From an uncultured Gammaproteobacteria bacterium (GTDB lineage Bacteria > Patescibacteriota > Patescibacteriia > UBA9934 > GWF2-40-263), in the NCBI GenBank assembly GCA_964399675.1, contig CAYNRK010000002.1, positions 112,982 to 174,308 of the forward strand: a stretch of 61,327 bases of DNA, read 5' to 3'. The translations under genes and the position numbers were made by a program. Positions 1,192-49,703 of the stretch are shown here, in pieces (the stretch's first letter is position 1; each line of letters begins with the position of its first letter). The notes beneath the pieces are model-generated. The model was given only the letters and a program-made list of their open reading frames with translations. It searched no databases and had not been told where the DNA came from.

Positions 1192-1232
1192 CAAACAGAA
1201 ACACCCCAACCGTTTTCGTTTCGGCTGGGGTG
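1192..1232 (-). terminator. Intrinsic terminator of the 1258-2127 gene
   Basis: CACCCCAGCCG/CGGTTGGGGTG stem followed by TTTCTGTTTG on the minus strand. Confidence 0.7.
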
Positions 1233-1257
1233 AAGGAGAGGTGGCTCGACTTGAGCG

Positions 1258-2127
1258 CTATTCAGCGACGCGGCGCTCGGGTTCTACGAGACGATCTGGA
1301 TCCCCGTGGCTCCAACATGTGAAGAGCGCAACCAGCTCGAGCAGGGTTCTGCCACCCTCTTGGAACTTTGCAGCGGCCATGTTATCCCCAGGGGACTTGA
1401 ACCGCAGAATGTCTCCGCAGAACCTGAGCAAGCGGTACTGATCCCCATACAGCTCAGAGCATTGACTCTCGTCCTCGAGACGAGCCTGAAGAGTACGGAG
1501 TCCGGCAGGTGTGAACTCGGTTTCAGACCAGCCAGACCACAGCGGAGTCTGGTGCGTAACCACGGCCCTAGCACAACCCATCAGGTCGAGACAGCTGTTG
1601 AGCAGGGCGTAGAGCGGGGAGATCGCTTCCATGACCCAATACTCTCGAAGCAGGTGGAACGCACGTGCTTCCAAAGTCGCCTTGAGCAGAAGACCTTGAC
1701 CCAGAGCTTCGTTCGAAGCCATCCTCAGACACTCCCACTCACGAGACATGAACTCGTGAGCGTTCTTCACGTCACGCGCACTGAGTCCGGCAAGAGCGTT
1801 TGGTTCGAGCGCCAGGAACATGAGAACACGCTCTCTTGCGAACTTGGTTCTGACCCTTGGCACAACGTGCCGGACCAACACCTTCTTGGCGAGCTTGCGT
1901 AGGGAGGCATCCGGTTCTACGATCTTGACCTCGCTCGCAACCTCGATAAGGAAGCCAACTGTAAGGTCACGTTCAGCACTATTCCGACTGTCGCGCTCTT
2001 GTGCTGCATGAATCAGTCCCGCAGCCTCCTCTGGACGCGTCGTGCGCCTGTATCGATTGACGATTTGAGCAATCACCATCCGGGTTCGATCTCGAGGAAC
2101 TGCGTTTGGAAAAAGCGGATCTGCCAT
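1258..2127 (-). CDS. Hypothetical protein (GC-rich, predicted mostly helical, ~289 aa)
   Basis: 299-aa ORF; start moved to ATG 2127, which follows an AAGGGAGAGG RBS. No recognisable family. Confidence 0.75.
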   Translation of the reverse strand: MADPLFPNAVPRDRTRMVIAQIVNRYRRTTRPEEAAGLIHAAQERDSRNSAERDLTVGFLIEVASEVKIVEPDASLRKLAKKVLVRHVVPRVRTKFARERVLMFLALEPNALAGLSARDVKNAHEFMSREWECLRMASNEALGQGLLLKATLEARAFHLLREYWVMEAISPLYALLNSCLDLMGCARAVVTHQTPLWSGWSETEFTPAGLRTLQARLEDESQCSELYGDQYRLLRFCGDILRFKSPGDNMAAAKFQEGGRTLLELVALFTCWSHGDPDRLVEPERRVAE

Positions 2128-2238
2128 GATTTCCTCTCCCTTTTGCGTGCTTAGCATTTGTGCTTAGCACAGGATTGGTTACATGTTCACTCGCTGCCGG
2201 CGAGCACGGGCCAACGCTTTGTGCGCCTAACAAAAAAA

Positions 2239-2267
2239 ATCGTAGTTGAAAACCACGAGCTTGTCAA
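2239..2267 (-). promoter_or_regulatory. Sigma70-type promoter TTGACA-N17-TACGAT
   Basis: Read directly; upstream of the 1258-2127 gene. Confidence 0.6.
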
Positions 2268-2292
2268 TCCCGCCTCTCGCGAGAGGCGGGAT
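2267..2292. repeat. Perfect 26-bp palindrome ATCCCGCCTCTCGCGAGAGGCGGGAT
   Basis: Self-reverse-complementary; abuts the -35 element. Confidence 0.8.
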
Positions 2293-2323
2293 CACTGGTT
2301 TTTAATATTTTCAAGACTCACAT

Positions 2324-2357
2324 GTACATTAAATCCTCATATGAGGATTTAATGTAC
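2324..2357. repeat. CATATG-centred perfect palindrome (34 bp, subtype Y)
   Basis: GTACATTAAATCCT-CATATG-AGGATTTAATGTAC. Confidence 0.9.
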
Positions 2358-2401
2358 GCCTAACTGAACCGCAATAGACCGCAAGCAAGTAGCGATCTAG
2401 A

Positions 2402-2437
2402 TTGATGTAAAGTTTCCATATGGAAACTTTACATCAA
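2402..2437. repeat. CATATG-centred perfect palindrome (36 bp, subtype X)
   Basis: TTGATGTAAAGTTTC-CATATG-GAAACTTTACATCAA; same outer arms as the sites at 30161 and 30756. Confidence 0.9.
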
Positions 2438-2471
2438 TGCTTTTTTAAATATTTTAATTTTTTCAAGACTC

Positions 2472-2513
2472 AAGTGTACATTAAATCGCCATATGGAAGT
2501 TTAATGTACACTT
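2472..2513. repeat. CATATG-centred imperfect palindrome (42 bp, subtype Y)
   Basis: AAGTGTACATTAAATCGC-CATATG-GAAGTTTAATGTACACTT; overlaps the uppP stop codon. Confidence 0.85.
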
Positions 2514-3294
2514 ATGTTAAAAGAATCATCACACCAAGCAGGATTCGGAAAATGGCAATTCCTGTGTATGAATTTGTTTTTAAAAATGTGAGAAGGAATT
2601 TGATTGTAAGAAAAGCAGCTACAACTGAAGTAATAAATCCAATCAAAAGTGGCGCGTACCCAATCGATGCACTAGCAGTAACCCCCCCTAACCCCCCCTT
2701 GAAAAGGGGGGGGATGGCTTTCAAAAGACCTGCGGCTGCAATGGTTGGGATTCCAAGCAAGAAAGAAAACTTGGTTGCAGTCTCGCGAGTTAATTTCCCA
2801 AACAACCCAGCTGTAATTGTAATTCCAGACCTAGATGTTCCAGGAATCAAAGCAAGAACTTGAGCGAATCCAATTACCAATGACTTTTTCCAACCAACCA
2901 TTTCAACTGAATCTTTTTTTGTTCCAGCAGCACGATCAGCAAAGTAAAGTACAATTCCCCAAACTATAAACGACCAAGCAACAACCTGAGTTGAACGAAG
3001 CGCAAGCTCAACAAAATCTTGCGCAAAAAAACCAACAATCACAATTGGAATCGTTGCGAGGATAATCCAATATCCTAAGGATTTCCATTTTTTAAAGCCA
3101 AGCAGTACTTCTGGCCAGAGCGCCCAGATCACTGCAGCAAGAGTTCCAAAATGAACAATGGCATCAAATGAAAGACTCTGAATCTCCCACCCAAGCCACT
3201 CTGGTATCAAAATCAAAAATCCCGAACTTGAGATCGGGAGAAATTCTGTTATTCCTTGAACAATTCCAAGAGTAAAGGCTTGAATCAAACTCAT
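2512..3294 (-). CDS. uppP: Undecaprenyl-diphosphatase UppP (BacA)
   Basis: GIVQGITEFLPISSSG and ALIPGTSRSGITI motifs; likely start MSLIQAF at 3294. Confidence 0.95.
   Translation of the reverse strand: MSLIQAFTLGIVQGITEFLPISSSGFLILIPEWLGWEIQSLSFDAIVHFGTLAAVIWALWPEVLLGFKKWKSLGYWIILATIPIVIVGFFAQDFVELALRSTQVVAWSFIVWGIVLYFADRAAGTKKDSVEMVGWKKSLVIGFAQVLALIPGTSRSGITITAGLFGKLTRETATKFSFLLGIPTIAAAGLLKAIPPLFKGGLGGVTASASIGYAPLLIGFITSVVAAFLTIKFLLTFLKTNSYTGIAIFRILLGVMILLT
2679..2715. repeat. Family A repeat in frame inside uppP (PPLFKGGLGGV)
   Basis: TAACCCCCCCTAACCCCCCCTTGAAAAGGGGGGG. Confidence 0.85.
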
Positions 3295-3295
3295 G

Positions 3296-5194
3296 TTAAT
3301 CAAACTTTATTGATTGACCTGTTTTAAGTGTTCCAGATTGAGCGTCTGGTTTGTTTTCATTTTTTTTTGGTTGGCGCTCTTCTTGTTTAGGTGCTTGTTG
3401 TGAAGAACCTCCTGAGCTTGGTTTCTTTTTCTTTCGTTTTCGTTTTCGTTTCTTTTTTGGCCCATCTCCCCCGGTGTCTTTGCGAGGAGTCTGATCTCGA
3501 TCAGACGACGAAGCAATCTTCGTATTCTTTTCGTTTTCTTTTACGGGGTTTGCTTCGGTCGCTTCGCTCCCTCGCAATGACGCAGGTGGCAAATCCCCCA
3601 ACGAAATCGACGGTTCTTCCGGAGCCTTTTCAATCACCTCACCTTCTGAAGGCTTTGGTGGTGCTTCTTGTTTTGGTTTTTCTTTTTTACGTACCTGTTT
3701 CTTCTTTTTTCCTGACTTTCTTTCCTCTCTTACAATTTCAATACAATCTTCACAATAGATTGGTCGCGAGCGATCAAGCTCAACCGGCAAAACCATATCT
3801 TTGTTACAGCGCGTACAATTATACTCGTGTCTTGGCTTGCGAGATTGTTTAGCAGCCTTCTTTTTCTCTTCAGCCTCTTTGTACATTTGCTCATCATCTA
3901 TTTCATCCATTCCAGACCATTTCACAATTTTTTCCTCAATCTCAGCACGTTTATGTGCATATCTTTCTCGTGAAATTTTAATTACTTTTTCTTCAGAGTG
4001 TGTAACATTTGCAATTGGCGGTAAAGTAATTGCTGAAAATGGTTGACTTGTAACTCCATCAATTAAAAGTTTCAAATAAATATTAAACTTTGGAAGGTTG
4101 ATAATGTCTTCTGGAGTAAAGCGCGGCATGAACTCGGTTTCCATGTACGTTGCATCAGGCGAACCAACACGAAAAGCAATAATGCTTCCAACGTTTCCAA
4201 ACACAGCTTCACGCACCTCATCTGTAAGTTGAGCAATATACTGGTGAGCCATTGTAAGACACAGTCGATACTTTCTGGCCTCAGACAAAATACCGGCAAA
4301 CGACTCAACAGCAAAGTTTTGAAACTCATCAACATACAAATAAAAGTCTTCACGTTCGATCTCTGGGATATCAACACGTTCCATTGCGGCAAGTTGGATC
4401 TTGGAAATCAAAAGACCTCCTAAAAGCCTTGAGTTGTCTTCACCAATTCGCCCTTTTGACAAGTTGATAATAAAAATTTTCTTATTATCCATTATTTCGC
4501 GAATATTGATTGAAGATTTTACCTGAGCAACAATGTTTCGAATAATTGACGCGGAAAGAAACTGACCAATCTTGTTTTGAATTGGAGCAACTGCTTCTTG
4601 AGCATACTTATCGTTGTAACTTGCAAACTCTTTAAGCCAGAACTGCTTCACAACAGGATCTGTTACATTGCCAACCATTCGTTTTCTGTAATCTGCGTCA
4701 GACAAGATTCTATTAATACCAAGCAATGTTGAACCAGGATTATCAAGAAGCGCAAGAATGGTGTTATTTAAAATGTATTCCATTCTGGAGGACCACATGT
4801 TTTCCCAAATCTTTTTGAAAACCGCCATCATTCCACTTGTAACCAAATGTTTATGGCGCTCACTAACTGCTTCCAAGATATTAAAACCAATCGGATACTC
4901 AACATCAGACGGATTAAAATACACAACATCATTCATTCGCCAGCTTGGAATATAATCAATAATTTTCTCTGCAGTATCTCCGTGAGGGTCAACATAACAA
5001 CAACCATGACCGGCATAAATATCAGACAAGATGTAATTTTCAAGAAGAGTCGTCTTTCCCATACCAGTCTTTCCAATAACATAAACGTGCCGACGTCTGT
5101 CATCGGTTTTGACACCAAACTTTGTCATTGAATTTCTAAAATTCGTTTTTGCAAAGTAGGTCACCTCATTTTCGTGGTCATGATTGTATGGCAT
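3296..5194 (-). CDS. VirB4/TraD(TrwB)/HerA-like P-loop ATPase with CxxC-x17-CxxC Zn module and a basic disordered tail
   Basis: IGKTGMGKT Walker A, YVDPHGD, LYVDEFQNF Walker B, LSEARKYRL; CTRC...CEDC. Confidence 0.85.
   Translation of the reverse strand: MPYNHDHENEVTYFAKTNFRNSMTKFGVKTDDRRRHVYVIGKTGMGKTTLLENYILSDIYAGHGCCYVDPHGDTAEKIIDYIPSWRMNDVVYFNPSDVEYPIGFNILEAVSERHKHLVTSGMMAVFKKIWENMWSSRMEYILNNTILALLDNPGSTLLGINRILSDADYRKRMVGNVTDPVVKQFWLKEFASYNDKYAQEAVAPIQNKIGQFLSASIIRNIVAQVKSSINIREIMDNKKIFIINLSKGRIGEDNSRLLGGLLISKIQLAAMERVDIPEIEREDFYLYVDEFQNFAVESFAGILSEARKYRLCLTMAHQYIAQLTDEVREAVFGNVGSIIAFRVGSPDATYMETEFMPRFTPEDIINLPKFNIYLKLLIDGVTSQPFSAITLPPIANVTHSEEKVIKISRERYAHKRAEIEEKIVKWSGMDEIDDEQMYKEAEEKKKAAKQSRKPRHEYNCTRCNKDMVLPVELDRSRPIYCEDCIEIVREERKSGKKKKQVRKKEKPKQEAPPKPSEGEVIEKAPEEPSISLGDLPPASLRGSEATEANPVKENEKNTKIASSSDRDQTPRKDTGGDGPKKKRKRKRKKKKPSSGGSSQQAPKQEERQPKKNENKPDAQSGTLKTGQSIKFD
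3550..3583. repeat. Family B (GTCAT..ATGAC-type) repeat unit in frame (SLRGSEATEA)
   Basis: TTGCTTCGGTCGCTTCGCTCCCTCGCAATGACGC resembles the units at 47462-47580. Confidence 0.75.
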
Positions 5195-6826: not shown

Positions 6827-6948
6827 TGTCATCTCGAGCGAGACAAAGTCGAGCCGAGAGATCTCGAACATGCGAGATTTCTCCGCTCCGGCCCGTCTGA
6901 CGGGCCTCCGGTCGAAATGACATAATAATTACTCGGTCGAGATAACAA
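6827..6948. repeat. Family B nested palindromic element
   Basis: TGTCATCTCGAG...GAGATTTCTCCGCTCCGGCCCGTCTGACGGGCCTCCGGTCGAAATGACA; core shared with 15983 and 39609. Confidence 0.85.
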
Positions 6949-21976: not shown

Positions 21977-22060
21977 AGTTCCCCTCCTTTTCAAGGAGGG
22001 GTTAGGGGTGGTTATGATTCAGAATACTAACCCCCCATAGTCCCCCTTGAGAAGGGGGAC
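21977..22060. repeat. Family A inverted doublet (intergenic)
   Basis: 40 bp identical to 1097-1136, plus a second inverted unit. Confidence 0.85.
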
Positions 22061-22069
22061 ATTTTAATA

Positions 22070-22683: not shown

Positions 22684-22727
22684 ATTCCAATACTATTCTT
22701 TACGATCGACGATAATAGTATTGGAAT
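22684..22727. repeat. CGATCG-centred imperfect palindrome (44 bp)
   Basis: ATTCCAATACTATT outer arms around CGATCG at 22703-22708. Confidence 0.75.
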
Positions 22728-22788: not shown

Positions 22789-22826
22789 CTTATAAAATAC
22801 TTCACGATCGTGAAGTATTTTATAAG
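22789..22826. repeat. CGATCG-centred perfect palindrome (38 bp)
   Basis: CTTATAAAATACTTCA-CGATCG-TGAAGTATTTTATAAG. Confidence 0.9.
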
Positions 22827-28402: not shown

Positions 28403-28456
28403 AAAAAACACTTATACCAACCGTGACGATCGTCACGGTTGGTATAAGTGTTTTTT
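28403..28456. repeat. CGATCG-centred perfect palindrome (54 bp)
   Basis: AAAAAACACTTATACCAACCGTGA-CGATCG-TCACGGTTGGTATAAGTGTTTTTT. Confidence 0.9.
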
Positions 28457-30117: not shown

Positions 30118-30160
30118 GTCTTTATTATTGATTGTAATGTAAAAGTGTAAACTTTAACAA

Positions 30161-30196
30161 TTGATGTAAAGTGACCATATGGTTAGTTTACATCAA
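30161..30196. repeat. CATATG-centred 36-bp imperfect palindrome overlapping the stop of the Cas2/PaaX-like gene
   Basis: TTGATGTAAA-GTGAC-CATATG-GTTAG-TTTACATCAA. Confidence 0.9.
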
Positions 30197-30742
30197 TGCT
30201 TCTTTTCCTATGTAAACCTTTACCCAATCAATAATACCCAAAAGATGTGCAAGGGCAACTGTGTCCTCGACAACATCTTTTTTTGTTGCAAAAACACTTA
30301 ACTGGATCATACGAAAATCTGCTGAGCAAAGAAATCGTCGCCAATAATTTCGTGCCTTGGTTGCACCGTTTGGAAAATCAAACATCACAATACATTGCCC
30401 GTCGTCTGGCAAATCAGTTTCTTCATTTCTAATTGAATCTTTTAAAACAGAAATAATTGCATCAGCGTTAAGTTTAACAATAACCTCTCCTCCCCGCTCT
30501 CTATCCTCAATCCATTTTTTCCTACGCAGTTCTTTTAATACCCGATTCTGTTTCCATCTTTCAATATCATCCTCATACATTTCATTCCACTGCTTTTTTG
30601 CTAAAGAAGCTTCATAGAAATATTTTGGTCCAGTATACGACCAATCAAAAAGAGGAGAAAGTAAATCTTGACCCTCCAATATTTTTAACAAAATTTTACT
30701 CTGAAGAGTTTGCCTCTTCTTTAACCTCTTTTTCTTTAACAT
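30188..30742 (-). CDS. wHTH plus Cas2/PaaX-C-terminal-like protein
   Basis: LKELRRKKWIE...VKLN (wHTH-like), then IVMFDFP..ARNYWRRFL...FRMIQLSVF, matching the Cas2/VapD/PaaX pattern; start MLKKKR at 30742. Confidence 0.75.
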   Translation of the reverse strand: MLKKKRLKKRQTLQSKILLKILEGQDLLSPLFDWSYTGPKYFYEASLAKKQWNEMYEDDIERWKQNRVLKELRRKKWIEDRERGGEVIVKLNADAIISVLKDSIRNEETDLPDDGQCIVMFDFPNGATKARNYWRRFLCSADFRMIQLSVFATKKDVVEDTVALAHLLGIIDWVKVYIGKEALM

Positions 30743-30755
30743 AGTGGAAAATAGA

Positions 30756-30791
30756 TTGATGTAAAGTTTCCATATGGTCATTTTACATCAA
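30756..30791. repeat. CATATG-centred 36-bp imperfect palindrome upstream of the Cas2/PaaX-like gene
   Basis: TTGATGTAAA-GTTTC-CATATG-GTCAT-TTTACATCAA. Confidence 0.9.
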
Positions 30792-30826
30792 TTCACTCTT
30801 TGTTCCAAAACCAAAATAACACAATA

Positions 30827-38288: not shown

Positions 38289-38320
38289 GACTATTTTACA
38301 ACGATCGTCGTAAAATAGTC
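38289..38320. repeat. CGATCG-centred palindrome (32 bp, 1 mismatch)
   Basis: GACTATTTTACAA-CGATCG-TCGTAAAATAGTC. Confidence 0.85.
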
Positions 38321-38380: not shown

Positions 38381-38413
38381 CTAACCCCTTGTAGCCTCCC
38401 TTGAAAAGGAGGG
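38381..38413. repeat. Family A single unit downstream of tgt
   Basis: CTAACCCCTTGTAGCCTCCCTTGAAAAGGAGGG. Confidence 0.75.
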
Positions 38414-38433
38414 TTTCCTTCAAAATTATGTCA

Positions 38434-39597
38434 CTAAGAAAGTGCGTTACGCAAAGAATGCATGAGATCAAGATAAAAAGCCAAATTGTGGATTGTTGCG
38501 AGTCTTAAAGCCAAAATTTCGTTTACTTGAAAAAGGTGACGTAAATATGCTTTTGATGTTGTTGCGCAAGTGACACATGAACAATGCGGATCAATTGCTG
38601 AATCATCAAAAGCAAATCGTTCGTTTGTGATTCTTGTTTGATTATAAAAATCTAAGCTAACCCCCCTTAATCCCTCCTCAGTGCTAACCCCCCTTAATCC
38701 CCCCTTGAAAAGGGGGGAAAATACTTTGCTTGGATCTTGTTTCCAGGTAAACAAAGTTCCGTGGCGTGCGTTTCGAGTTGGAATAACACAATCAAACATA
38801 TCAACTCCAAATGAAACATACTGAACAATTTCTTCTGGCATACCACCACCCATAAAATACCGAGGTTTGTCTTCCGGTAAATTGTCGCAAGTAAACTTTG
38901 TAAATTTGTAACAGTCTTCGCGCGGTTCACCAACAGACAAGCCGCCAATTGCGTAACCATCAAATCCAATTTCTGTTAATCCTTCTGCTGATCGCTTTCG
39001 CAAATCTTCATGAATTCCGCCTTGGACAATGCCGAAAAGCTTTTGATCATAACCCCCCTTAATCCCCCCTTGAAAAGGGGGGAGATTTTCCTTGCACCTC
39101 TTTGCCCATCTTAGAGATCGCTCCATTGCATCTTCAAATCGATCGTAACTGGATGTTCCTGCAGCAACATCATCAAACTGCATGATCATGTCCGCGCCAA
39201 TTGCAGCTTGCATTTCCATGGATTTCTCAGGAGTGAGTTCGATTCTTGATCCATCAACATGCGACTGAAACAAAACCCCCTCTTCAGTAATCTTATTCAA
39301 CTTTGACAAACTAAAAACCTGATAGCCTCCGCTATCAGTTAAAATCGGTTTATTCCAATTCATGAATTTGTGAAGTCCTCCGTACTTCTTCATTGCATCC
39401 ATTCCAGGTCTTAACAAAAGATGGTAAGTATTTGAAAGCAAAATCTGTGCTCCCAGATCCTCCATGTCTTTTGAAGACATTGTCTTAACCGCACCCTTTG
39501 TTGCGATTGGCATGAAAAACGGCGTTTCAATTTCACCGTGCGCTAGTTTGATTTTCCCTCTTCTTGCTTTTCCAGTAGTTTTTAAAAGCTCAAACAT
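38434..39597 (-). CDS. tgt: tRNA-guanine transglycosylase
   Basis: ETPFFMP, SNTYHL, LTDSGGYQVFS, GIVQGG, GYAIGGLSVGE, DMFDCV, CSCxxC...HN Zn site. Confidence 0.97.
   Translation of the reverse strand: MFELLKTTGKARRGKIKLAHGEIETPFFMPIATKGAVKTMSSKDMEDLGAQILLSNTYHLLLRPGMDAMKKYGGLHKFMNWNKPILTDSGGYQVFSLSKLNKITEEGVLFQSHVDGSRIELTPEKSMEMQAAIGADMIMQFDDVAAGTSSYDRFEDAMERSLRWAKRCKENLPPFQGGIKGGYDQKLFGIVQGGIHEDLRKRSAEGLTEIGFDGYAIGGLSVGEPREDCYKFTKFTCDNLPEDKPRYFMGGGMPEEIVQYVSFGVDMFDCVIPTRNARHGTLFTWKQDPSKVFSPLFKGGLRGVSTEEGLRGVSLDFYNQTRITNERFAFDDSAIDPHCSCVTCATTSKAYLRHLFQVNEILALRLATIHNLAFYLDLMHSLRNALS
38657..38718. repeat. Family A repeat with partial tandem duplication, in frame in tgt (SPLFKGGLRGVSTEEGLRGVS)
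   Basis: CTAACCCCCCTTAATCCC occurs twice, followed by CCCCTTGAAAAGGGGGG. Confidence 0.85.
39050..39084. repeat. Family A repeat in frame in tgt (LPPFQGGIKGG)
   Basis: TAACCCCCCTTAATCCCCCCTTGAAAAGGGGGGAG. Confidence 0.85.
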
Positions 39598-39608
39598 ATC
39601 TTAGACCC

Positions 39609-39767
39609 TGTCATCTCGACCGATCCAATTTTCTTCTTGTCATCCCGAGCGGAGCCCGGCAGCTGCCGGGCGAAGCCGAGGGATCTCGAATATGCGAGAT
39701 TTCTCCGCTCCGGCCCGTCTGACGGGCCTCCGGTCGAAATGACATAATAATACTCGCTCGAGATGAC
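39609..39767. repeat. Family B nested palindromic element
   Basis: Near-identical to the reverse complement of 15983-16144. Confidence 0.9.
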
Positions 39768-39803: not shown

Positions 39804-40856
39804 TTACTCTTTTAAACCCAACTCATCTAACAATTTCTTTTCCTGGCGGCTTAACTTTTTTGGAGTAACAACATTAACCTGAACCATATGATCTCCTCTT
39901 CCGTGTCGAGTTGGCACACCTTTTCCTTTGAGTTTAAATTGGCTGCCTGATTGAGTTCCGGATGGAATTTTTAAATCAACTGTTCCATCAACTGTTTTGA
40001 TTTCAATAGTATCTCCCAAAGCAGCTTGTGTGAATCCAATATCAGTTTGAGTATACAGATCAGATCCATGACGCTCAAAACCGGGATCGCGTCTTACGTG
40101 CAAACGCACAAACAAGTCCCCTGTTTCACCGGCAAGAATTGCCTCGCCTTCTCCTCGCACTCTTAAAATACTTCCGTCTTCTATGCCAGCGGGGATTTGA
40201 ATGTTTAACTTTTTGTGCTCTTTGTTTACTCCTGCCCCATGACAAGTAGAACACTTCTCTTTTGGAACCTCACCTTGGCCATTACACTCTGCGCATGCGT
40301 GCTTGCGCTGCATTGTTCCAAAAACAGTTCTTTGAGCTGAAACCTGAACACCGGAACCATTACATCCGGTACACGTTTTCAAACCCTTTGCAGGCTCGGC
40401 TCCGTTTCCACTACATCGCTCACAATTTTCAGGTCGTGTAATTTCGAGTTCTCGCTCACCACCAAAAACAGCTTCTTTAAATTCTAAATCAAAATCAACT
40501 TGAATGTCTTGCCCGCGACGTTTTTGTTTACGAGTTCTTCCGCCAAAGCCTCCAAAAATGTCTCCAAAAATGTCGCCCAGATCCTCAAACCCAGCTCCGG
40601 AAAATCCTTCAAAACCTTGCCCTCCTCCAAAACCCTGGAAACCCTCAAAGCCGGCTGAGCCAAATTGATCGTACTGTTTTCGTTTTTTATTATCACTAAG
40701 AACTTGATAAGCTTCATTGATTTCTTTGAACTTTTCTTCATTTCCATCCTTTTTATCCGGATGGTATTTATGTGCAAGTTTACGAAAAGCACGCTTAATC
40801 TCATCAAAAGAAGCGCCTTTGTCTACATCTAAAATTTTGTAATAGTCCTTGGACAT
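39804..40856 (-). CDS. dnaJ: Chaperone DnaJ
   Basis: J domain with HPD, G/F region, four CxxCxGxG repeats. Confidence 0.97.
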   Translation of the reverse strand: MSKDYYKILDVDKGASFDEIKRAFRKLAHKYHPDKKDGNEEKFKEINEAYQVLSDNKKRKQYDQFGSAGFEGFQGFGGGQGFEGFSGAGFEDLGDIFGDIFGGFGGRTRKQKRRGQDIQVDFDLEFKEAVFGGERELEITRPENCERCSGNGAEPAKGLKTCTGCNGSGVQVSAQRTVFGTMQRKHACAECNGQGEVPKEKCSTCHGAGVNKEHKKLNIQIPAGIEDGSILRVRGEGEAILAGETGDLFVRLHVRRDPGFERHGSDLYTQTDIGFTQAALGDTIEIKTVDGTVDLKIPSGTQSGSQFKLKGKGVPTRHGRGDHMVQVNVVTPKKLSRQEKKLLDELGLKE

Positions 40857-40870
40857 AGATTCAGAACAAA

Positions 40871-40899
40871 ATGGTACTTTATCTTGGCCTTTTTTTCAA
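40871..40899 (-). promoter_or_regulatory. dnaJ promoter TTGAAA-N17-TACCAT (no CIRCE)
   Basis: Read directly. Confidence 0.5.
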
Positions 40900-40962
40900 G
40901 TGTTGAATCAAAAAAATCTGTTATACTACTTCATACTGATAAAACATTTTAGAACCTTTTAT

Positions 40963-43900
40963 ATGTCCAAACACATGGGGGTTAAACTTTTAAAAACAAG
41001 CGGCATCTTTTTTGCACTATTTATAGCTCTGTCTGCATCAGTTGCATTTGCTGCAGATGGGCCGCGATTTTCAAATGAAGACATTGACAACATCCTTCAG
41101 GCGCAACAAGAAAACTTTGCAATAGTAAAAAAATGCGATGTTGATTCGTTTGTTCCAATGGACCCTGATGGAAGTATTACAAAAATTGAAGTTCTTGGTT
41201 TGGAAGATGGTTATTGCAAATTAAGAGCCCACACATCAACTGAAAGAGCAGAATATTTATTGCCAGAAGAAGTATACAAAAACATTTCTGATATAGAAGA
41301 TTTGTTTAAAGGAGAATGCTCTGGCGACTGTGGAAATGTGGAAGAAGCAAGTGAAGCACCAGAGCCGGCTGATGAAAGCGAACAATGTGTACGAGATTGT
41401 ATTGTTAGAAATTGTAGCCTTAGCTCGTTGGAGTGCGAAAGGCTGAACAAAGACGCATGTGATATTGAATGTTATGGAGAAGCGCCTTCAACAGAAGACA
41501 TGAGTGAGGAGGAGCTTTGTATTTTAGAGTGTGTTGGTGACGATATAATTTGTTCTGCTGGCGAGGGCGGTGAACAAAATCCTGAATGTGAAGAATGTGC
41601 AAACAAATGTTCGGTACTTTATGAAGGGCCGTGTCTGACTGATGAACAATGGAAGCTAAAAGAAACTGCGTGTTTGGCAAGAGGCACAACATGGTCAGCA
41701 GATGAAGTTAAAGGAGATTCTGGTGAAGGTTATCAATGTGTGGTGAATCTTGATTGTGTAGATCATTCTGATGAATGGGGTGATGATGCTGGCACAGGAC
41801 CCGCTAGTTATGAAAAAGGACATGAGCCAAGTGAGGATCAGGTTTATTGGTGGGATTATGAAGAAGAAGAAGAGGAGGTTGAATTAGAAATCGAAGAGGA
41901 AGTAGAAGTTGATCGAATTGACGACAAGCTAATTCTAAAAACAGATGAAACCGAAATTATTGTTGAAGATCGGTCTGAAGAAATAATTGCTGAGTACTTA
42001 GACAAAAATGAACGTGTAGAAAAAATTGAATTGCTAATGGAAGATGAAAAACCAATATATAAAGTTAAAACCATTGAACAAAAGAAGTTGCTTGGTCTTT
42101 TTTCAATAAACATGAGAATAGACAAAAAAATAGATGCCGAGAATCTGGATCTTATTAAGGAAGAAAAACCTTGGTGGGCGTTTTTAACAAGCGAAGAGCT
42201 TAAAGATCTGCGGCCCACTTTTATTAGTCATGAACCTGATCAACAAAAGGATGAGGCAGATGACCTTGCTGAACCAAGTGGATATGGCAGTGATGTCTAT
42301 ACTGGAAAGGCCACAAATGAAGAAGCGCTGGATACTGAACCTTTGGATTATGAAACTGATTGCAGTCCTCTGCCTGAAATTGGTACACCGGAAAATGCAG
42401 TTCTGCAGGATACAGAACTGGGACAACATGCATATTATAATGAATCAGATTGTGAAGTGATCCAACGTGATAGTTACAAAGAAAAAGTGATTGAACAGGC
42501 AGAGGAATACTACAATGAACTTTCCGGAGTTTATCTTCAAATGAAAAATGTTCTTAAAGAAACTGAGGCAAAAGCAGAGGATGCAAAATCAAAACTTGAT
42601 AGATGCATTGGAACTTCTGTTGGTTCAAGCAATAATCAACCAGGAGAAACCGATATAAATCATATTTCAGGCATTCTCATAAAAATGAGGGAGTTGGCAG
42701 TACAAAGCTCAAGCCCGGACATTGCACAACATTCAACTTATTATTCCTCAGACTATGTAGTCTCAGGCAATCTGAATAACATGTACCACTCTATAAGTTA
42801 CGCTTATATTGATTTGTACAAGTTTGACAAAATTAATCTCACCTTGAATAAATATTTGGATTTTGTTTTTGAAGTATGTGAAAGTGGGGCTTGTCTTTCG
42901 CCAGACATGAAAGAACATATTAAAGAAATGATTGAAGAAGATTTGGCGAGTTTACAAGAATTTGTTGATAATGTTTATCAGGATGCACTTGATTCACTTG
43001 AAGCATATGGAAATCTTCAAAGTCGCGTAAAGGAACTGTCTGAGGGTGAGAGTTGTAGCGATTATCTAAATGAGTACTATTATAATTCTAATGGAAAACG
43101 AAAAGAAGGTGGCGCCACTGAATATAATGATCAGGAGCTGCTCGGGGATGTAACTTTTGATGTTGGTATTGAGGATTCTGAAGATGATTCCGGGGTCGTA
43201 AGGATAACGTCAGAAGATGATTCCTATTTATCAAAAGAAGATAATCGATTTATTGTTGAAAAGGAAGATAAGAGTCATGAGTTTGATGAAGATGTGATTG
43301 CCGAACTGATCGAAGAAAAAGGTGAAGATGTTCGAAGTGTTGAGCTTGGTTTCGAAGATGATGAGCCTGTTTTAAAAATCAACAAAATAGAAAAAAAGAA
43401 CTTGCTTGGATTTATTCCAATAACTCTGGAAGAGACATCTATTATTGATGCTGAAACTTTAGAAGAAACAGACATTGACAAACCTTGGTGGGCGTTTTTG
43501 GCAAGTGAAGAAGATGAAAACGAAGAAGAAGCAAGTGAGGAGGAGGAAGATGAGGTAGCCCCAGGCTTTAGCCTGGGCGAAGAGGAGGAAGAAGATGAAG
43601 GGAATAATTGGTTTAATTCTTTATTACTGCTTTTTTCAAATGAGGATGAGGGAGATATAATTTGCGGAGATAATTTTTGTCATGAAAGTGAATATGAATC
43701 TTGCCCGGCTGACTGCACCACAATATGTGGAGATGGAATGTGCCAGACACAGCTTGGAGAGTCATGGAATAATTGTCCGCAAGATTGCGAGCCTTATGAG
43801 GAAGAAGAGATAAATAGCGTATGCGGAAATGGTGTTTGCGAAATGGGAGAAAATCCTGATGTGTGTGCTCAAGATTGTGGGGCTTGCGGAGATGGGCTTT

Positions 43901-45399
43901 GTGGAAATCATGAAGTAATGGCCGGAGATAATTATTGTCCTCTTGACTGTATTGAACCTTGTGGCAATCAAAAATGCATGGGTGGTGAAACTTATTTAAG
44001 TTGTCCTGTTGATTGCGGAATTTGTGGTGACAGTTTCTGTGGTTTTATGGAGAATGCTCAGAACTGTCCAAACGACTGTAAGGGAACGTGTGGAAATACT
44101 ATTTGTGAAATAATGGAAAACTTAGAATCTTGTCCTGTTGACTGTAAACCACCATGTGGAAACAACGTTTGTGATGGCAGTGAAAATCCTGACAACTGCT
44201 GGGTTGATTGTGGACCATCTGAACTTACATATAAAGAGAATAATTGTGGAAATGGTGTCTGCAATGGAGGTGAAAATCCTGAAAATTGTGCAACAGATTG
44301 TGGTTGGTGTGGAGACGGTACGTGTGGATTCGATGAGCTGGCCTCCCTTCTCTGTCCAAGCGACCATCCAATTTGTTTAAAAGACTTTGGAACTTCTCCG
44401 TGGTGCGCAGTTGGAATTGATTGTGGTTCAGATTGTGGAAATGGAATTTGTAATGTTGGAGAAAATTCCAAGTCATGTCCATTTGATTGTTTAGTTTGTG
44501 GAGATGGTATTTGTGCTCTTACTGAAACCACAGAAAGTTGTGAAAATGATTGTCCGGACGTTCTACTTAGTGGATGTGGAGATGGCGAATGCTTGGGGTT
44601 AGAAGACAGTGCAAACTGCGCTGCTGATTGTGCTTCAGGGTGTGAAGATGGAACATGTTCGAGTAAAGAATCAATACTGAGTTGCTCTGCGGATTGTAAT
44701 TTTTCGTGTGGAGATGGCGTTTGCACTGTAGGTGAAGATTGTGATCAGGATTGTGATTTTAATTGTGGAGATGGAGTTTGTTATGGAGCTGAAACTGTAA
44801 ACAGTTGTCCAGACGATTGCTCAATGTATCAACAAAAAGAAATAACTTATGCTGCAGATGGAGAATTTTGTGGTGATGCAGAATGTACTCAAAGTGAAAA
44901 CCAAACAAGTTGTGCATTAGATTGTGAATTTACGTGTGGAGATGGAGTTTGTAGTATTGGTGAAAGTAATGCGTCCTGTAATGCTGATTGCGATCCCTCC
45001 TGTGGGAATGCGCAGTGTGAAGTGGGCGAAGGCAAGGATGTTTGTCCAAAGGATTGCGGATGGTGTGGTGATGGTTTCTGTAGCGAAAATGAAAGCCTTG
45101 AAATTTGTCCACAAGATTGTGATGCATGTGGAAATTGGATCTGCGATTATTTTGAAGATGAAACTTCCTGTTCAGTAGATTGTAAGGTTGAACCAATAAC
45201 AACAAATCCAATGTGCGGCTTTGCAGAGTGCGGGGATGGTCAAGGTTTTTGTGTAAAGAGTTGTGGACTTTGTGGCGACTGGGTATGTGCACCAAGTGAA
45301 AAAGGAGTTTGTGATCTGGATTGTTCTTCTGCGTGTGGAAATGAAATCTGCGAAGCAGACGAGTCAACAGAAAACTGTCCATCTGATTGTTCTTCTTAA
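40963..45399 (+). CDS. Large secreted/surface acidic protein with ~24 Cys-rich CG(D/N)GxC..C..DC repeats and two KPWWAFL-type domains
   Basis: Signal-peptide-like N-terminus (FFALFIALSASVAFA); repeats counted by hand from 43663; start moved to ATG 40963. Confidence 0.85.
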   Translation: MSKHMGVKLLKTSGIFFALFIALSASVAFAADGPRFSNEDIDNILQAQQENFAIVKKCDVDSFVPMDPDGSITKIEVLGLEDGYCKLRAHTSTERAEYLLPEEVYKNISDIEDLFKGECSGDCGNVEEASEAPEPADESEQCVRDCIVRNCSLSSLECERLNKDACDIECYGEAPSTEDMSEEELCILECVGDDIICSAGEGGEQNPECEECANKCSVLYEGPCLTDEQWKLKETACLARGTTWSADEVKGDSGEGYQCVVNLDCVDHSDEWGDDAGTGPASYEKGHEPSEDQVYWWDYEEEEEEVELEIEEEVEVDRIDDKLILKTDETEIIVEDRSEEIIAEYLDKNERVEKIELLMEDEKPIYKVKTIEQKKLLGLFSINMRIDKKIDAENLDLIKEEKPWWAFLTSEELKDLRPTFISHEPDQQKDEADDLAEPSGYGSDVYTGKATNEEALDTEPLDYETDCSPLPEIGTPENAVLQDTELGQHAYYNESDCEVIQRDSYKEKVIEQAEEYYNELSGVYLQMKNVLKETEAKAEDAKSKLDRCIGTSVGSSNNQPGETDINHISGILIKMRELAVQSSSPDIAQHSTYYSSDYVVSGNLNNMYHSISYAYIDLYKFDKINLTLNKYLDFVFEVCESGACLSPDMKEHIKEMIEEDLASLQEFVDNVYQDALDSLEAYGNLQSRVKELSEGESCSDYLNEYYYNSNGKRKEGGATEYNDQELLGDVTFDVGIEDSEDDSGVVRITSEDDSYLSKEDNRFIVEKEDKSHEFDEDVIAELIEEKGEDVRSVELGFEDDEPVLKINKIEKKNLLGFIPITLEETSIIDAETLEETDIDKPWWAFLASEEDENEEEASEEEEDEVAPGFSLGEEEEEDEGNNWFNSLLLLFSNEDEGDIICGDNFCHESEYESCPADCTTICGDGMCQTQLGESWNNCPQDCEPYEEEEINSVCGNGVCEMGENPDVCAQDCGACGDGLCGNHEVMAGDNYCPLDCIEPCGNQKCMGGETYLSCPVDCGICGDSFCGFMENAQNCPNDCKGTCGNTICEIMENLESCPVDCKPPCGNNVCDGSENPDNCWVDCGPSELTYKENNCGNGVCNGGENPENCATDCGWCGDGTCGFDELASLLCPSDHPICLKDFGTSPWCAVGIDCGSDCGNGICNVGENSKSCPFDCLVCGDGICALTETTESCENDCPDVLLSGCGDGECLGLEDSANCAADCASGCEDGTCSSKESILSCSADCNFSCGDGVCTVGEDCDQDCDFNCGDGVCYGAETVNSCPDDCSMYQQKEITYAADGEFCGDAECTQSENQTSCALDCEFTCGDGVCSIGESNASCNADCDPSCGNAQCEVGEGKDVCPKDCGWCGDGFCSENESLEICPQDCDACGNWICDYFEDETSCSVDCKVEPITTNPMCGFAECGDGQGFCVKSCGLCGDWVCAPSEKGVCDLDCSSACGNEICEADESTENCPSDCSS

Positions 45400-45891: not shown

Positions 45892-45986
45892 AAAAATACT
45901 TATAAAATACTTCTCGATCGAGAAGTATTTTATAAGTATTTTTTTCTAAAGCAAAACAAGCCTACTCGGCTTGTTTTGCTATTGTT
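45892..45986. repeat. Module: perfect 52-bp CGATCG palindrome plus AGCAAAACAAGCC hairpin (copy 1)
   Basis: AAAAATACTTATAAAATACTTCT-CGATCG-AGAAGTATTTTATAAGTATTTTT, then AGCAAAACAAGCC-TACTC-GGCTTGTTTTGCT. Confidence 0.9.
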
Positions 45987-46046: not shown

Positions 46047-46313
46047 TAGTGGAGCGACCCGGAGTCGAACCGGCGCCTCCCTTCCAGAAACCCAGCAACA
46101 GCTCTTCCCAACAGGGTTGAGACTTTTCAGTGTGACGGTGAGTCTTTCACCCCTCCGTCCTCCTCCCGCGCCTACCACTACTCGCGGTACTGGTTCAACA
46201 CGGACGCTCTCTGCCTGAGCTAATCCACACTTACTTTAGTGTCAGCCGCTCCTCGACTGATCTATTGCCTTCGTTCCAGAGGACGCTCTTCCCAATGTTG
46301 AGCTTGTCGCCCC
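46047..46313 (-). ncRNA. 267-nt tRNA-like RNA with Ala-type acceptor and an extended anticodon-arm domain (tmRNA-like or intron-containing tRNA; unresolved)
   Basis: 5' GGGGCGA pairs with 3' TCGCTCC-A (G3:U70); GCTC/GAGC D-stem; GGTTCGACTCC T-arm; long-range helices CCTCT/GGAGG, GGAAC/GTTTC, GGCAATAG/CTGTTGCT. Confidence 0.6.
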
Positions 46314-46327
46314 TAACTGCAGATCGA

Positions 46328-46356
46328 AGATTACTTCACCTAAGTGTCCATGTCAA
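46328..46356 (-). promoter_or_regulatory. Promoter TTGACA-N17-TAATCT of the tRNA-like RNA
   Basis: -10 element 14 nt upstream of GGGGCGA. Confidence 0.65.
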
Positions 46357-46375: not shown

Positions 46376-46468
46376 AAAAATACTTTGAAAAAAGTTCACG
46401 ATCGTGAAATATTTTCAAAGTATTCTTCTAAAGCAAAACAAACCTACCCGGCTTGTTTTGCTATTGTT
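46376..46468. repeat. Module: CGATCG palindrome plus AGCAAAACAA hairpin (copy 2), overlapping the YbaK-like stop
   Basis: AATACTTTGAAAAAAGTTCA-CGATCG-TGAAATATTTTCAAAGTATT, then AGCAAAACAAACC-TACCC-GGCTTGTTTTGCT. Confidence 0.85.
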
Positions 46469-47300: not shown

Positions 47301-47461
47301 GAATTTTTCGAAGTTGTCTGTTATATTCAAATCATTATAATATTTCACAATCCTCCAACGAACCCCCAGTATCTCCACAACAGGTACGTTGTATATAATT
47401 TCGCCAGCACGGAGCCACGCGAGTACTGCCGAAATTATATACAACGTGACTGTCCCCCAAA

Positions 47462-47580
47462 AATTCTTAACGGAGATTGCTTCGCTTCGCTCGCAATGAC
47501 ACAGGATGCAGGACACAAGGGAATTCTTAACGGAGATTGCTTCGTCGGCCGTCGGACGGCCTCCTCGCAATGACACAGGA
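47462..47580. repeat. Two tandem family B units downstream of dnaK
   Basis: AATTCTTAACGGAGATTGCTTCG...TCGCAATGACACAGGA twice, with different inner hairpins. Confidence 0.85.
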
Positions 47581-49555: not shown

Positions 49556-49664
49556 TGTCATCTCGACTAAGGCCGAAGGCCGCACGGAGAGATCTCGAAT
49601 TTTGTTTAAGTAATTCGAGATCCCTCGGCTTCGACCCGTCGAACGGGTCTTCGCTCGGGATGAC
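49556..49664. repeat. Family B element between grpE and dnaK
   Basis: TGTCATCTCGAC...GAGATCTCGAA...TTCGAGATCCCTCGGCTTCG...CGCTCGGGATGACA. Confidence 0.8.
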
Positions 49665-49703
49665 AAGAAAAACGATTAACTCAGTTAGGGTGACAGTTTA
49701 TAA

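Follow-up and report, generated by a model that had tools for sequence, protein, structure and literature searches.

The E. coli repressor PaaX recognises two inverted hexamers 27 bp apart (TGATTC-N27-GAATCA, 39 bp in all) and represses its own promoter (PMC9493321). The stretch of DNA analysed here, which we refer to as the window, is 61,327 nt long and corresponds, by its uppP coordinates, to the last 61,327 bases of ERZ23499079 scaffold_12; it carries the gene of a short PaaX-like protein, P0001, with a 38-bp palindrome at either end. The second protein of relevance is Cas2, and in Cas1-Cas2 complexes the Cas2 dimer runs along duplex DNA. Reading the sequence against these two precedents, we think it reasonably likely that the palindromes of the two types described below, X and Y, are the cognate double-stranded DNA binding sites of P0001 and of a paralogue, P0003, serving as operators in autoregulation and, at one place, in an array.

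Five long palindromes with a CATATG centre are found in the window, two of the Y type (2324-2357 and 2476-2509) and three of the X type (M, 2401-2438; A, 30160-30197; B, 30755-30792). Three of the five form a cluster in the order Y-X-Y at the 3' end of uppP (2300-2513), where the initial annotation had placed CATATG cores at 2338, 2417 and 2490 together with a direct repeat that has a 21-nt leader identical at 20 of 21 positions; both descriptions agree with the sequence. The features of this region, from uppP through the array to the gene beyond it, are:

2512-3294, minus strand: uppP (bacA), PF02673 (2.4e-70), upstream of the array
2472-2513: Y3, a Y-type palindrome, of which the core part at 2476-2509 is GTACATTAAATCGC-CATATG-GAAGTTTAATGTAC
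2452-2472: leader copy 2, TTTTAATTTTTTCAAGACTCA, part of a direct repeat of about 60 nt
2401-2438: M, a solo X-type site and perfect 38-bp (19+19) palindrome, ATTGATGTAAAGTTTC-CATATG-GAAACTTTACATCAAT
2322-2360: Y1, a Y-type palindrome, perfect (17+17) at 2324-2357, GTACATTAAATCCT-CATATG-AGGATTTAATGTAC
2300-2320: leader copy 1, TTTTAATATTTTCAAGACTCA, part of the same direct repeat
2267-2292: a G+C-rich perfect hairpin at the edge of a high-GC island, abutting the -35 of the promoter-like site of the island gene
1258-2127, minus strand: orphan ORF of 289 aa (299 aa from an upstream ATG), downstream of the array

Y1 and Y3 each lie inside one unit of the direct repeat (2300-2362 and 2452-2514, 83% identical), and the centres of the three palindromes are spaced 79 and 73 bp apart. 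The inner spacer of Y3 is imperfect, and this palindrome overlaps the stop codon of uppP (2512-2514). The window has 15 CATATG hexamers; the five at these sites are symmetric at 13-16 of 16 flanking positions and the others at no more than 7. The X and Y motif patterns were observed three times and twice, against an expectation of 0 by chance as judged from shuffles, and among all 64 palindromic hexamers only CATATG (five sites) and CGATCG (six sites) centre several long palindromes in the window, ACATGT centring one. On the minus strand, each Y unit holds a weak promoter-like arrangement in which TGTACA is followed after 18 nt by TAAAAT or TAAAAA in the leader; in the unit made up of the Y3 arm and leader copy 2, where the -10-like TAAAAT lies 18 nt past the TGTACA of the arm, the promoter-like score is 9/12 (minus strand, 2480->2451). 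Because of this arrangement, the Y-X-Y array may be a doubly controlled promoter or an insulator.

The array has the uppP stop codon on one side and, on the other, a high-GC island of 1.1 kb with the orphan ORF; it is 60-240 bp upstream of the -35 of the orphan gene. The ORF is about 57% GC in a genome of 40% GC and comes with a promoter-like site, a Shine-Dalgarno sequence and a terminator-like hairpin of its own. Neither Pfam, NCBIfam, PHROG nor PADLOC yielded a match for it, no homologue turned up among 5.8 billion proteins, and Rfam offered no credible family for either the cluster or the high-GC island. There are two such islands in the window (1200-2292 and 56280-57900; 55-60% against 40%), the second of which carries an M17 leucyl aminopeptidase on the strand opposite to its neighbours, and both are probably horizontal acquisitions. 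A link of the sites with horizontally acquired islands was considered and rejected, since the second island (56.3-57.9 kb) is devoid of such sites.

The two remaining X-type sites are found some 28 kb away at the ends of the P0001 gene:

30755-30792: B, an X-type site 13 nt upstream of the P0001 ATG, overlapping the -10 of the best promoter-like match
30188-30742, minus strand: P0001, 184 aa, a winged-helix domain and a Cas2-fold domain (short PaaX-like)
30160-30197: A, an X-type site overlapping the last three codons and the stop of the P0001 gene (..ALM*)

The end of site A is 9 nt upstream of a -35-like hexamer belonging to the APH gene, and a separate G+C-rich terminator serves the ABC-transporter gene that lies upstream of B. 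The arms of the X half-sites, six in the window, are all identical (11/11), whereas the spacers between arm and core are poorly complementary in A (3/5) and B (2/5), as they are in Y3 (1/4). Since the X arms are identical and the spacers are not kept complementary, recognition of the sequence is favoured over maintenance of a hairpin.

The protein P0001 matches PF20803 (PaaX_M, 'central Cas2-like domain') with 25.6 bits against a cutoff of 24, and the Pfam and TIGR models of Cas2 score just below their cutoffs; PaaX_M and Cas2 are its only Pfam matches. An AlphaFold model built with 136 homologues (pLDDT 89.5) has two domains, a winged helix at residues 13-106 or thereabouts and a beta-alpha-beta-beta-alpha-beta domain at 116-179, with a strand at E116-121 before D122. 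In Foldseek this model matched E. coli PaaX best (8A39; E 1.7e-4 over 176 columns), with many Cas2 chains next in line. Consistent with this, the family profile of the C-domain aligns to type II-A Cas2 through FDxP..R..FRxxL..GF..QxSV, and that of the N-domain to the winged helices of ArsR/SmtB and AspA. D122, which occupies the position of the Cas2 catalytic aspartate, is the sole invariant residue among the 136 family sequences; with the near-invariant residues the set is D, P, R, R, F, S, W and W, and includes no HUH and no Tyr. As modelled, P0001 is a protein resembling the PaaX repressor without the PaaX C-terminal domain. No second family member was found in the window or in the 3.5 kb past its left end.

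Word-indexed protein searches returned almost nothing beyond the query, and it required a full HMMER scan with the P0001 family to recover 415 clusters at E <= 1e-3; among the 150 best, the majority are close to 180 aa in length. The 136 aligned members were chosen at 150-230 aa. By their gene neighbourhoods, the members that were located belong to Patescibacteria-like genomes. Viral contigs contained no family relatives and no sites, and neither the family nor its gene-bracketing sites were described in the literature retrieved for PaaX, Cas2 and related terms. A genome scan and a metagenome scan each provided five loci, one of which, L018, is a pseudogene without recognisable sites. Every one of the 14 homologue loci with an intact gene, which come from different organisms, has a matched pair of sites around that gene. 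The bracketing was scored, ungapped, as a repeat shared between the regions from -130 to +15 of the start and from -25 to +130 of the stop. The 14 family loci scored 13.5-34.5, whereas the maximum for 96 control genes from the same loci was 13.5 (median 8.5) and none of the 96 scored above the weakest family locus.

The arms of the sites are unrelated between loci, whereas conservation of the 6-bp core follows the clades. Eight loci have CATATG at the centre (the window, L012 as T/CATATG, L013, L014, L015, L017, L027 and L028), three have a core of the CCCCGG type (L016, L019 and L020) and three have CGATCG (L022, L038 and L039). The core class broadly tracks protein similarity, with the CATATG and CCCCGG groups closer within than between, although the three CGATCG proteins are no closer to one another than to the others. 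These cores are classic restriction and methylation targets (NdeI, PvuI/Dam-containing and SmaI/HpaII-like), and methylation-sensitive binding at them is conceivable. Relative to the start, the upstream copy falls within -73 to +10, and it overlaps the best promoter-like hexamers in the window, L015, L017 and L027; relative to the stop, the downstream copy falls within -11 to +75. The next gene downstream is convergent in five loci or more, among them L012 with recR and L017 with murJ, which indicates that the 3' site belongs to the gene unit and not to the next promoter; an operator of the next gene was therefore rejected as a general explanation of the downstream site.

The orientation of the site pair is mixed, being direct in L015 and L022 and inverted in L013, L017 and L020. 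In L013 the pair forms true inverted terminal copies of 37 nt with one mismatch, and a further 34-nt upstream copy brings the total to three identical copies; flank similarities at this locus were considered as recombination hybrids, a view rejected because a longer palindrome, AAAnGAACCA...TGGTTCnTTT, explains them. In L022 the pair consists of direct repeats of 38 nt, with the stop codon included on one side and ATGAAGC, the gene's first 7 nt, on the other. Non-palindromic positions are shared by both copies in L013, L015 and L022. L038 has one further upstream copy of its site. With the exceptions of L013, L028 and L038, extra copies are absent from the surrounding 3-4 kb or so on either side in most other loci.

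The initial annotation had predicted that Y-subtype palindromes would be found beside a second paralogue, and this proved to be so. P0003, of 181 aa and 40% identical to P0001, is encoded on contigs of the same assemblies and samples as the window, such as ERZ23499079 scaffold_357 alongside scaffold_12. These contigs have the G+C content of the window (0.40) and contain its repeat families, and it is very likely that P0003 and P0001 are encoded in the same genome. The sites that bracket the P0003 gene have the form GTACATTA-N6-CATATG-N6-TAATGTAC, with the arms of Y1 and Y3. Over 39 nt, asymmetric flanking bases included, Y1 and the P0003 downstream site are 84.6% identical, and the core-adjacent spacers of that downstream site are not kept paired. 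Since P0003 is bracketed by Y-like sites, the cluster at the uppP 3' end can be understood as a Y-X-Y array of solo sites belonging to two paralogues. In about 100 kb of this genome that was read, there are three X-type and five Y-type sites, three of them solo. On the P0003 contig L028, the order is site, NUDIX gene, site, P0003, site, epimerase gene (sites at 9425-9462, 9965-9998 and 10539-10572), so that sites alternate with genes and a gene outside the family can be bracketed too.

Several other repeats were observed in the window. The six CGATCG palindromes (22687-22724, 22789-22826, 28403-28456, 38289-38320, 45892-45943 and 46376-46427) comprise at least four arm types, and several have the A-run and T-run flanks of a bidirectional terminator; as their core is that of L022, L038 and L039, they may be sites of further paralogues encoded elsewhere. 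Two of them belong to direct repeats of about 95 nt (45892-45986 and 46376-46468), each with a second hairpin, and between these repeats there is a G+C-rich non-coding stretch (about 46047-46340, minus strand) that ends in a tRNA-like T-arm/acceptor sequence. This stretch gave a weak Rfam tmRNA match (19 bits, E 1e-5, below gathering), was missed by ARAGORN and is probably a divergent tmRNA gene. G/C-run hairpin repeats (TAACCCCCC..TTGAAAAGGGGGG) occur at 613-660, 1097-1184, 2677-2715, 21977-22063, 38381-38417, 38656-38721 and 39048-39086, and in L028 at 3687-3737; the copy at 2677-2715 is in frame within uppP and is translated as ..IPPLFKGGLGGV... A repeat of about 196 nt with an internal inverted repeat (window 47349-47544; L028 11770-11964 and 15405-15544) is 92% and 82% identical between the window and the P0003 contig, and some contigs end there. 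A 78-nt intergenic repeat (6852-6929 and 39674-39751, 97% identical), with a related pair at 16063-16122 and 49614-49672, could be a shared 5' leader or a small RNA. Finally, an ORF of 1516 aa at 40849-45399 (plus strand) contains many tandem Cys-rich CG(D/N)GxC units and is the source of a local reversal of GC skew.

We propose that the sites are tripartite operators of the PaaX type. The arms covary with the protein lineage and the core with the clade, as would be expected if the winged helices read the arms and the Cas2-like dimer the centre, and it is this covariation, together with the identical X arms around unpaired spacers and a size of 34-38 bp like that of the PaaX operator, that leads to this reading. 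P0001 and P0003 both join a winged helix of the ArsR/PaaX kind to a Cas2-fold domain, and we infer that each protein binds as a dimer joined through its Cas2-like domains. The two winged helices would then read the lineage-specific outer arms, ATTGATGTAAA in X and the P0003-type arm in Y, and the Cas2-like dimer would lie over the clade-conserved central hexamer, CATATG, leaving the 4-6-nt spacers between arm and core free to vary. In every member a site lies over or next to the gene's own promoter or 5' UTR, where its occupation would be expected to cause autorepression, and the second site, at the stop codon, might act as a looping partner, a roadblock or a terminator. The Y-X-Y array at the uppP 3' end is most likely a protein-bound regulatory or insulating element between uppP and the foreign orphan gene.

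Four observations count against the operator reading. An autorepressor would not usually have a site at the stop codon of its gene. The Cas2 catalytic Asp position is invariant, for which a pure repressor has no obvious need; to our knowledge, E. coli PaaX lacks this residue. The array, at the 3' end of uppP and at its distance from the orphan -35, is not in a classical repressor position. In addition, the conserved non-palindromic positions of L013, L015 and L022, together with the short flank identities between solo and gene-flanking sites, suggest that sites have been copied and not shaped by selection for binding alone.

This last point would be accommodated by an explanation that we regard as unlikely, namely that protein and sites form a selfish or dispersal system in which the winged-helix/Cas2-domain protein would act on the central hexamer as a site-specific nuclease or recombination factor. 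In one version, the site-gene-site unit would be a minimal self-excising cassette and M the relic of a circle junction. In a second version, similar to REP/RAYT systems, a domesticated single-copy gene would be bracketed by palindromes that it copies elsewhere, the Y-X-Y cluster being one such place. The tight bracketing, with sites overlapping stop codons and abutting start codons, is as found in insertion sequences and RAYT genes, and the inverted terminal copies of L013 and the direct repeats of L022 reaching the stop codon and the start are in keeping with it. M and Y1 are perfect palindromes while the gene-flanking copies are imperfect, Y1 has asymmetric flanks in common with the P0003 downstream site, and an origin de novo of sites of 34-38 bp is unlikely; the invariance of the catalytic Asp position also points this way.

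The initial annotation had described M as the two inner flanks of a gene-bearing element joined together. Its left 26 nt (2398-2423) are indeed identical to 30752-30777, and the minus-strand translation ending ...LSLEKIKIFKKALM*, likened to the end of the P0001 gene, was confirmed. On the right, TTTACATCAATGCTT (2428-2442) is identical to 30187-30201 as claimed, but 11 of these 15 nt are conserved arm and the extra identity amounts to only 4. By our own count M agrees with the predicted junction at 42 of 45 positions and with A or B at 37-38 of 45. The flank on the gene-3' side has a 4-nt run and 16/24 identity, a value equalled by 33 of 12,060 AT-rich 24-mers (p ~0.003 uncorrected, and marginal, p ~0.04, after 15 comparisons), and on the gene-5' side there is a 3-nt run and an identical 5-nt spacer. 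The flanks of M find their best matches in the gene-facing flanks, but its right inner spacer is GAAAC whereas that of A is GTTAG, which means that M is not simply two inner halves joined. At a corrected p of about 0.04, the resemblance of its sequence to a circle junction is real but weak.

Against dispersal, 12 contigs contain the APH gene and P0001 is present in each that reaches far enough, so that no presence/absence polymorphism was found and mobility is unsupported. P0001 was at the same place in 8/8 contigs read, with one copy in the window, and the triple cluster is base-for-base identical in five fetched loci representing 11 uppP contigs. In L012 a homologue 37% identical to P0001 lies between the ABC transporter and recR, as in the window, although this shared position calls for caution since the L012 protein is slightly nearer to P0003 (42%). 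The copy number is low (one X and two Y solo sites in 61 kb), the pair orientation is mixed across the family, no target-site duplication is evident, the viral contigs yielded no matches, and the family has neither an HUH nor a tyrosine motif. We also know of no case in which Cas2 alone recombines DNA.

The initial annotation's gene-bearing element finds no support as a mobile unit in the far-reaching APH contigs, the L012 synteny or the mixed orientation. Its suggestion that M is a deletion scar, a re-integrated circle junction or a gene-less derivative keeps a third copy of the site and a certain likeness to a junction in its favour, but faces the lack of polymorphism and the marginal p value. 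The flank likeness of M and the L022 copies carrying parts of stop and start do leave copying as a possible origin of the sites. As bracketing is a trait of the whole family, however, the sites are best read as cognate binding sites, and the bracketing does not speak for a single recent excision or reintegration. That the stand-alone Cas2-domain protein, directed by its winged helix, is itself an active nuclease or recombination factor, with its Cas2-like domain catalytically engaged at the core and cutting or joining DNA at the central CATATG or CGATCG, seems less likely still. If it were, the site-gene-site unit would be a new minimal mobile or palindrome-dispersing element in Patescibacteria with M and the Y copies as its footprints, and the protein could be a relative of the ancestral, pre-CRISPR state of Cas2.

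It is distinctly improbable that the palindromes work as hairpins in RNA or single strands, whether as terminators, mRNA-stabilising 3' hairpins or 5'-UTR structures, with the protein either binding the RNA or being unrelated to it. Y1, M and Y3 all fold strongly (z = -9.1), a core of the form C-NNNN-G would fold into a tetraloop with a closing C-G pair, the downstream sites are at terminator positions with T-runs after several of them (L012, L013, L014 and L019), and the A-run/T-run palindromes centred on CGATCG have a terminator-like appearance as well. M followed by GCTTTTTT scores as a plus-strand terminator, but it is alone among the three in doing so, and that strand is antisense to the flanking genes; Y1 and Y3 have no U-tract, and on the minus (coding) strand none follows Y3, M or Y1. 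Moreover, the core-adjacent spacers are unpaired in A, B, Y3 and the P0003 downstream site and the hexamer is still invariant, the sites of L015 and L022 cannot be described as simple hairpins, a G+C-rich terminator is already in place for the ABC-transporter gene upstream of B, and matched pairs are specific to the Cas2-domain gene family. The last possibility, chance or low complexity of AT-rich intergenic DNA, to which the AT-rich genome and the location of the flank similarities within A/T runs might have pointed, is refuted by the shuffles (0 expected against 3 and 2 motif matches), by the hexamer census, in which several long palindromes share a centre only for CATATG and CGATCG, and by the 14/14 bracketed family loci, and can be dismissed almost entirely.

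With the operator reading preferred, the locus can be set beside the systems that it most resembles. ArsR/SmtB autorepressors and the archaeal centromere-binding protein AspA match the N-domain profile and bind palindromes at their own promoters; unlike P0001 they have no Cas2-fold domain, and their operators, of about 12-25 bp, do not bracket the gene. Elements of the IS200/IS605 type are similar in being a unit with one small gene and a palindrome at each end (about 630 bp here), and M resembles a circle of joined ends. In contrast to them there is no TnpA or TnpB, the position at the ABC transporter and recR recurs in L012, and the gene is single-copy without insertion polymorphism. REP/REPIN-RAYT systems and BIMEs share with the present loci a single-copy gene between its own cognate palindromes (14/14 loci), distinct palindrome classes for each paralogue, and solo copies clustered just past stop codons. 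Unlike a RAYT, P0001 is not an HUH/Y1 enzyme, the copy number so far is very low, and no dispersal or polymorphism was seen; we class the system neither as a RAYT nor as an insertion sequence.

In type II-A Cas2 (for example 5ZYF and 5XVN), the beta-alpha-beta-beta-alpha-beta fold aligns with the C-terminal 65 residues of P0001. Unlike in CRISPR Cas2, the domain in P0001 is fused to a sequence-specific winged helix. There was no cas1 in the gene lists of the fetched loci and no array of identical repeats in the window, and P0001 is for these reasons not a CRISPR Cas2; a CRISPR array consists of identical direct repeats, whereas the Y-X-Y cluster has a repeat-like period of about 75 bp but different palindromes. 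The family presents a Cas2-fold domain with the catalytic-position Asp outside CRISPR, tied to palindromic repeats, which bears on the role of Cas2 before CRISPR. Regulation in Patescibacteria (CPR bacteria) is almost unknown, and the bracketing sites offer a testable protein-site assignment for at least 415 protein clusters, each member having its own 'bar-coded' site of 34-38 bp at both gene ends. If the proteins only bind, they would represent a small collection of repressors and operators orthogonal to one another; if DNA is cut or recombined by them, a new type of element.

The closest parallel is PaaX. The E. coli protein (PDB 8A39), the best full-length structural match, has like P0001 an N-terminal winged helix and then a Cas2-like middle domain, but it continues into a C-terminal helical ligand-binding (aryl-CoA) domain to a length of about 300 aa, whereas P0001 ends after the Cas2-like domain at 184 aa. 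Its operator has inverted half-sites about 27 bp apart in 39 bp, a size close to the 34-38 bp of the X and Y sites. The upstream site often overlaps promoter-like hexamers, and binding is predicted at these palindromes of 38 bp and 34 bp. Unlike the situation with PaaX, there are no paa genes near P0001, the Cas2 signature is kept together with the Asp at the catalytic position, and the sites combine a central hexamer that is conserved with a further copy at the gene's 3' end. The P0001 system would in its working be like a PaaX-type repressor with its operator, but P0001 is not a PaaX orthologue.
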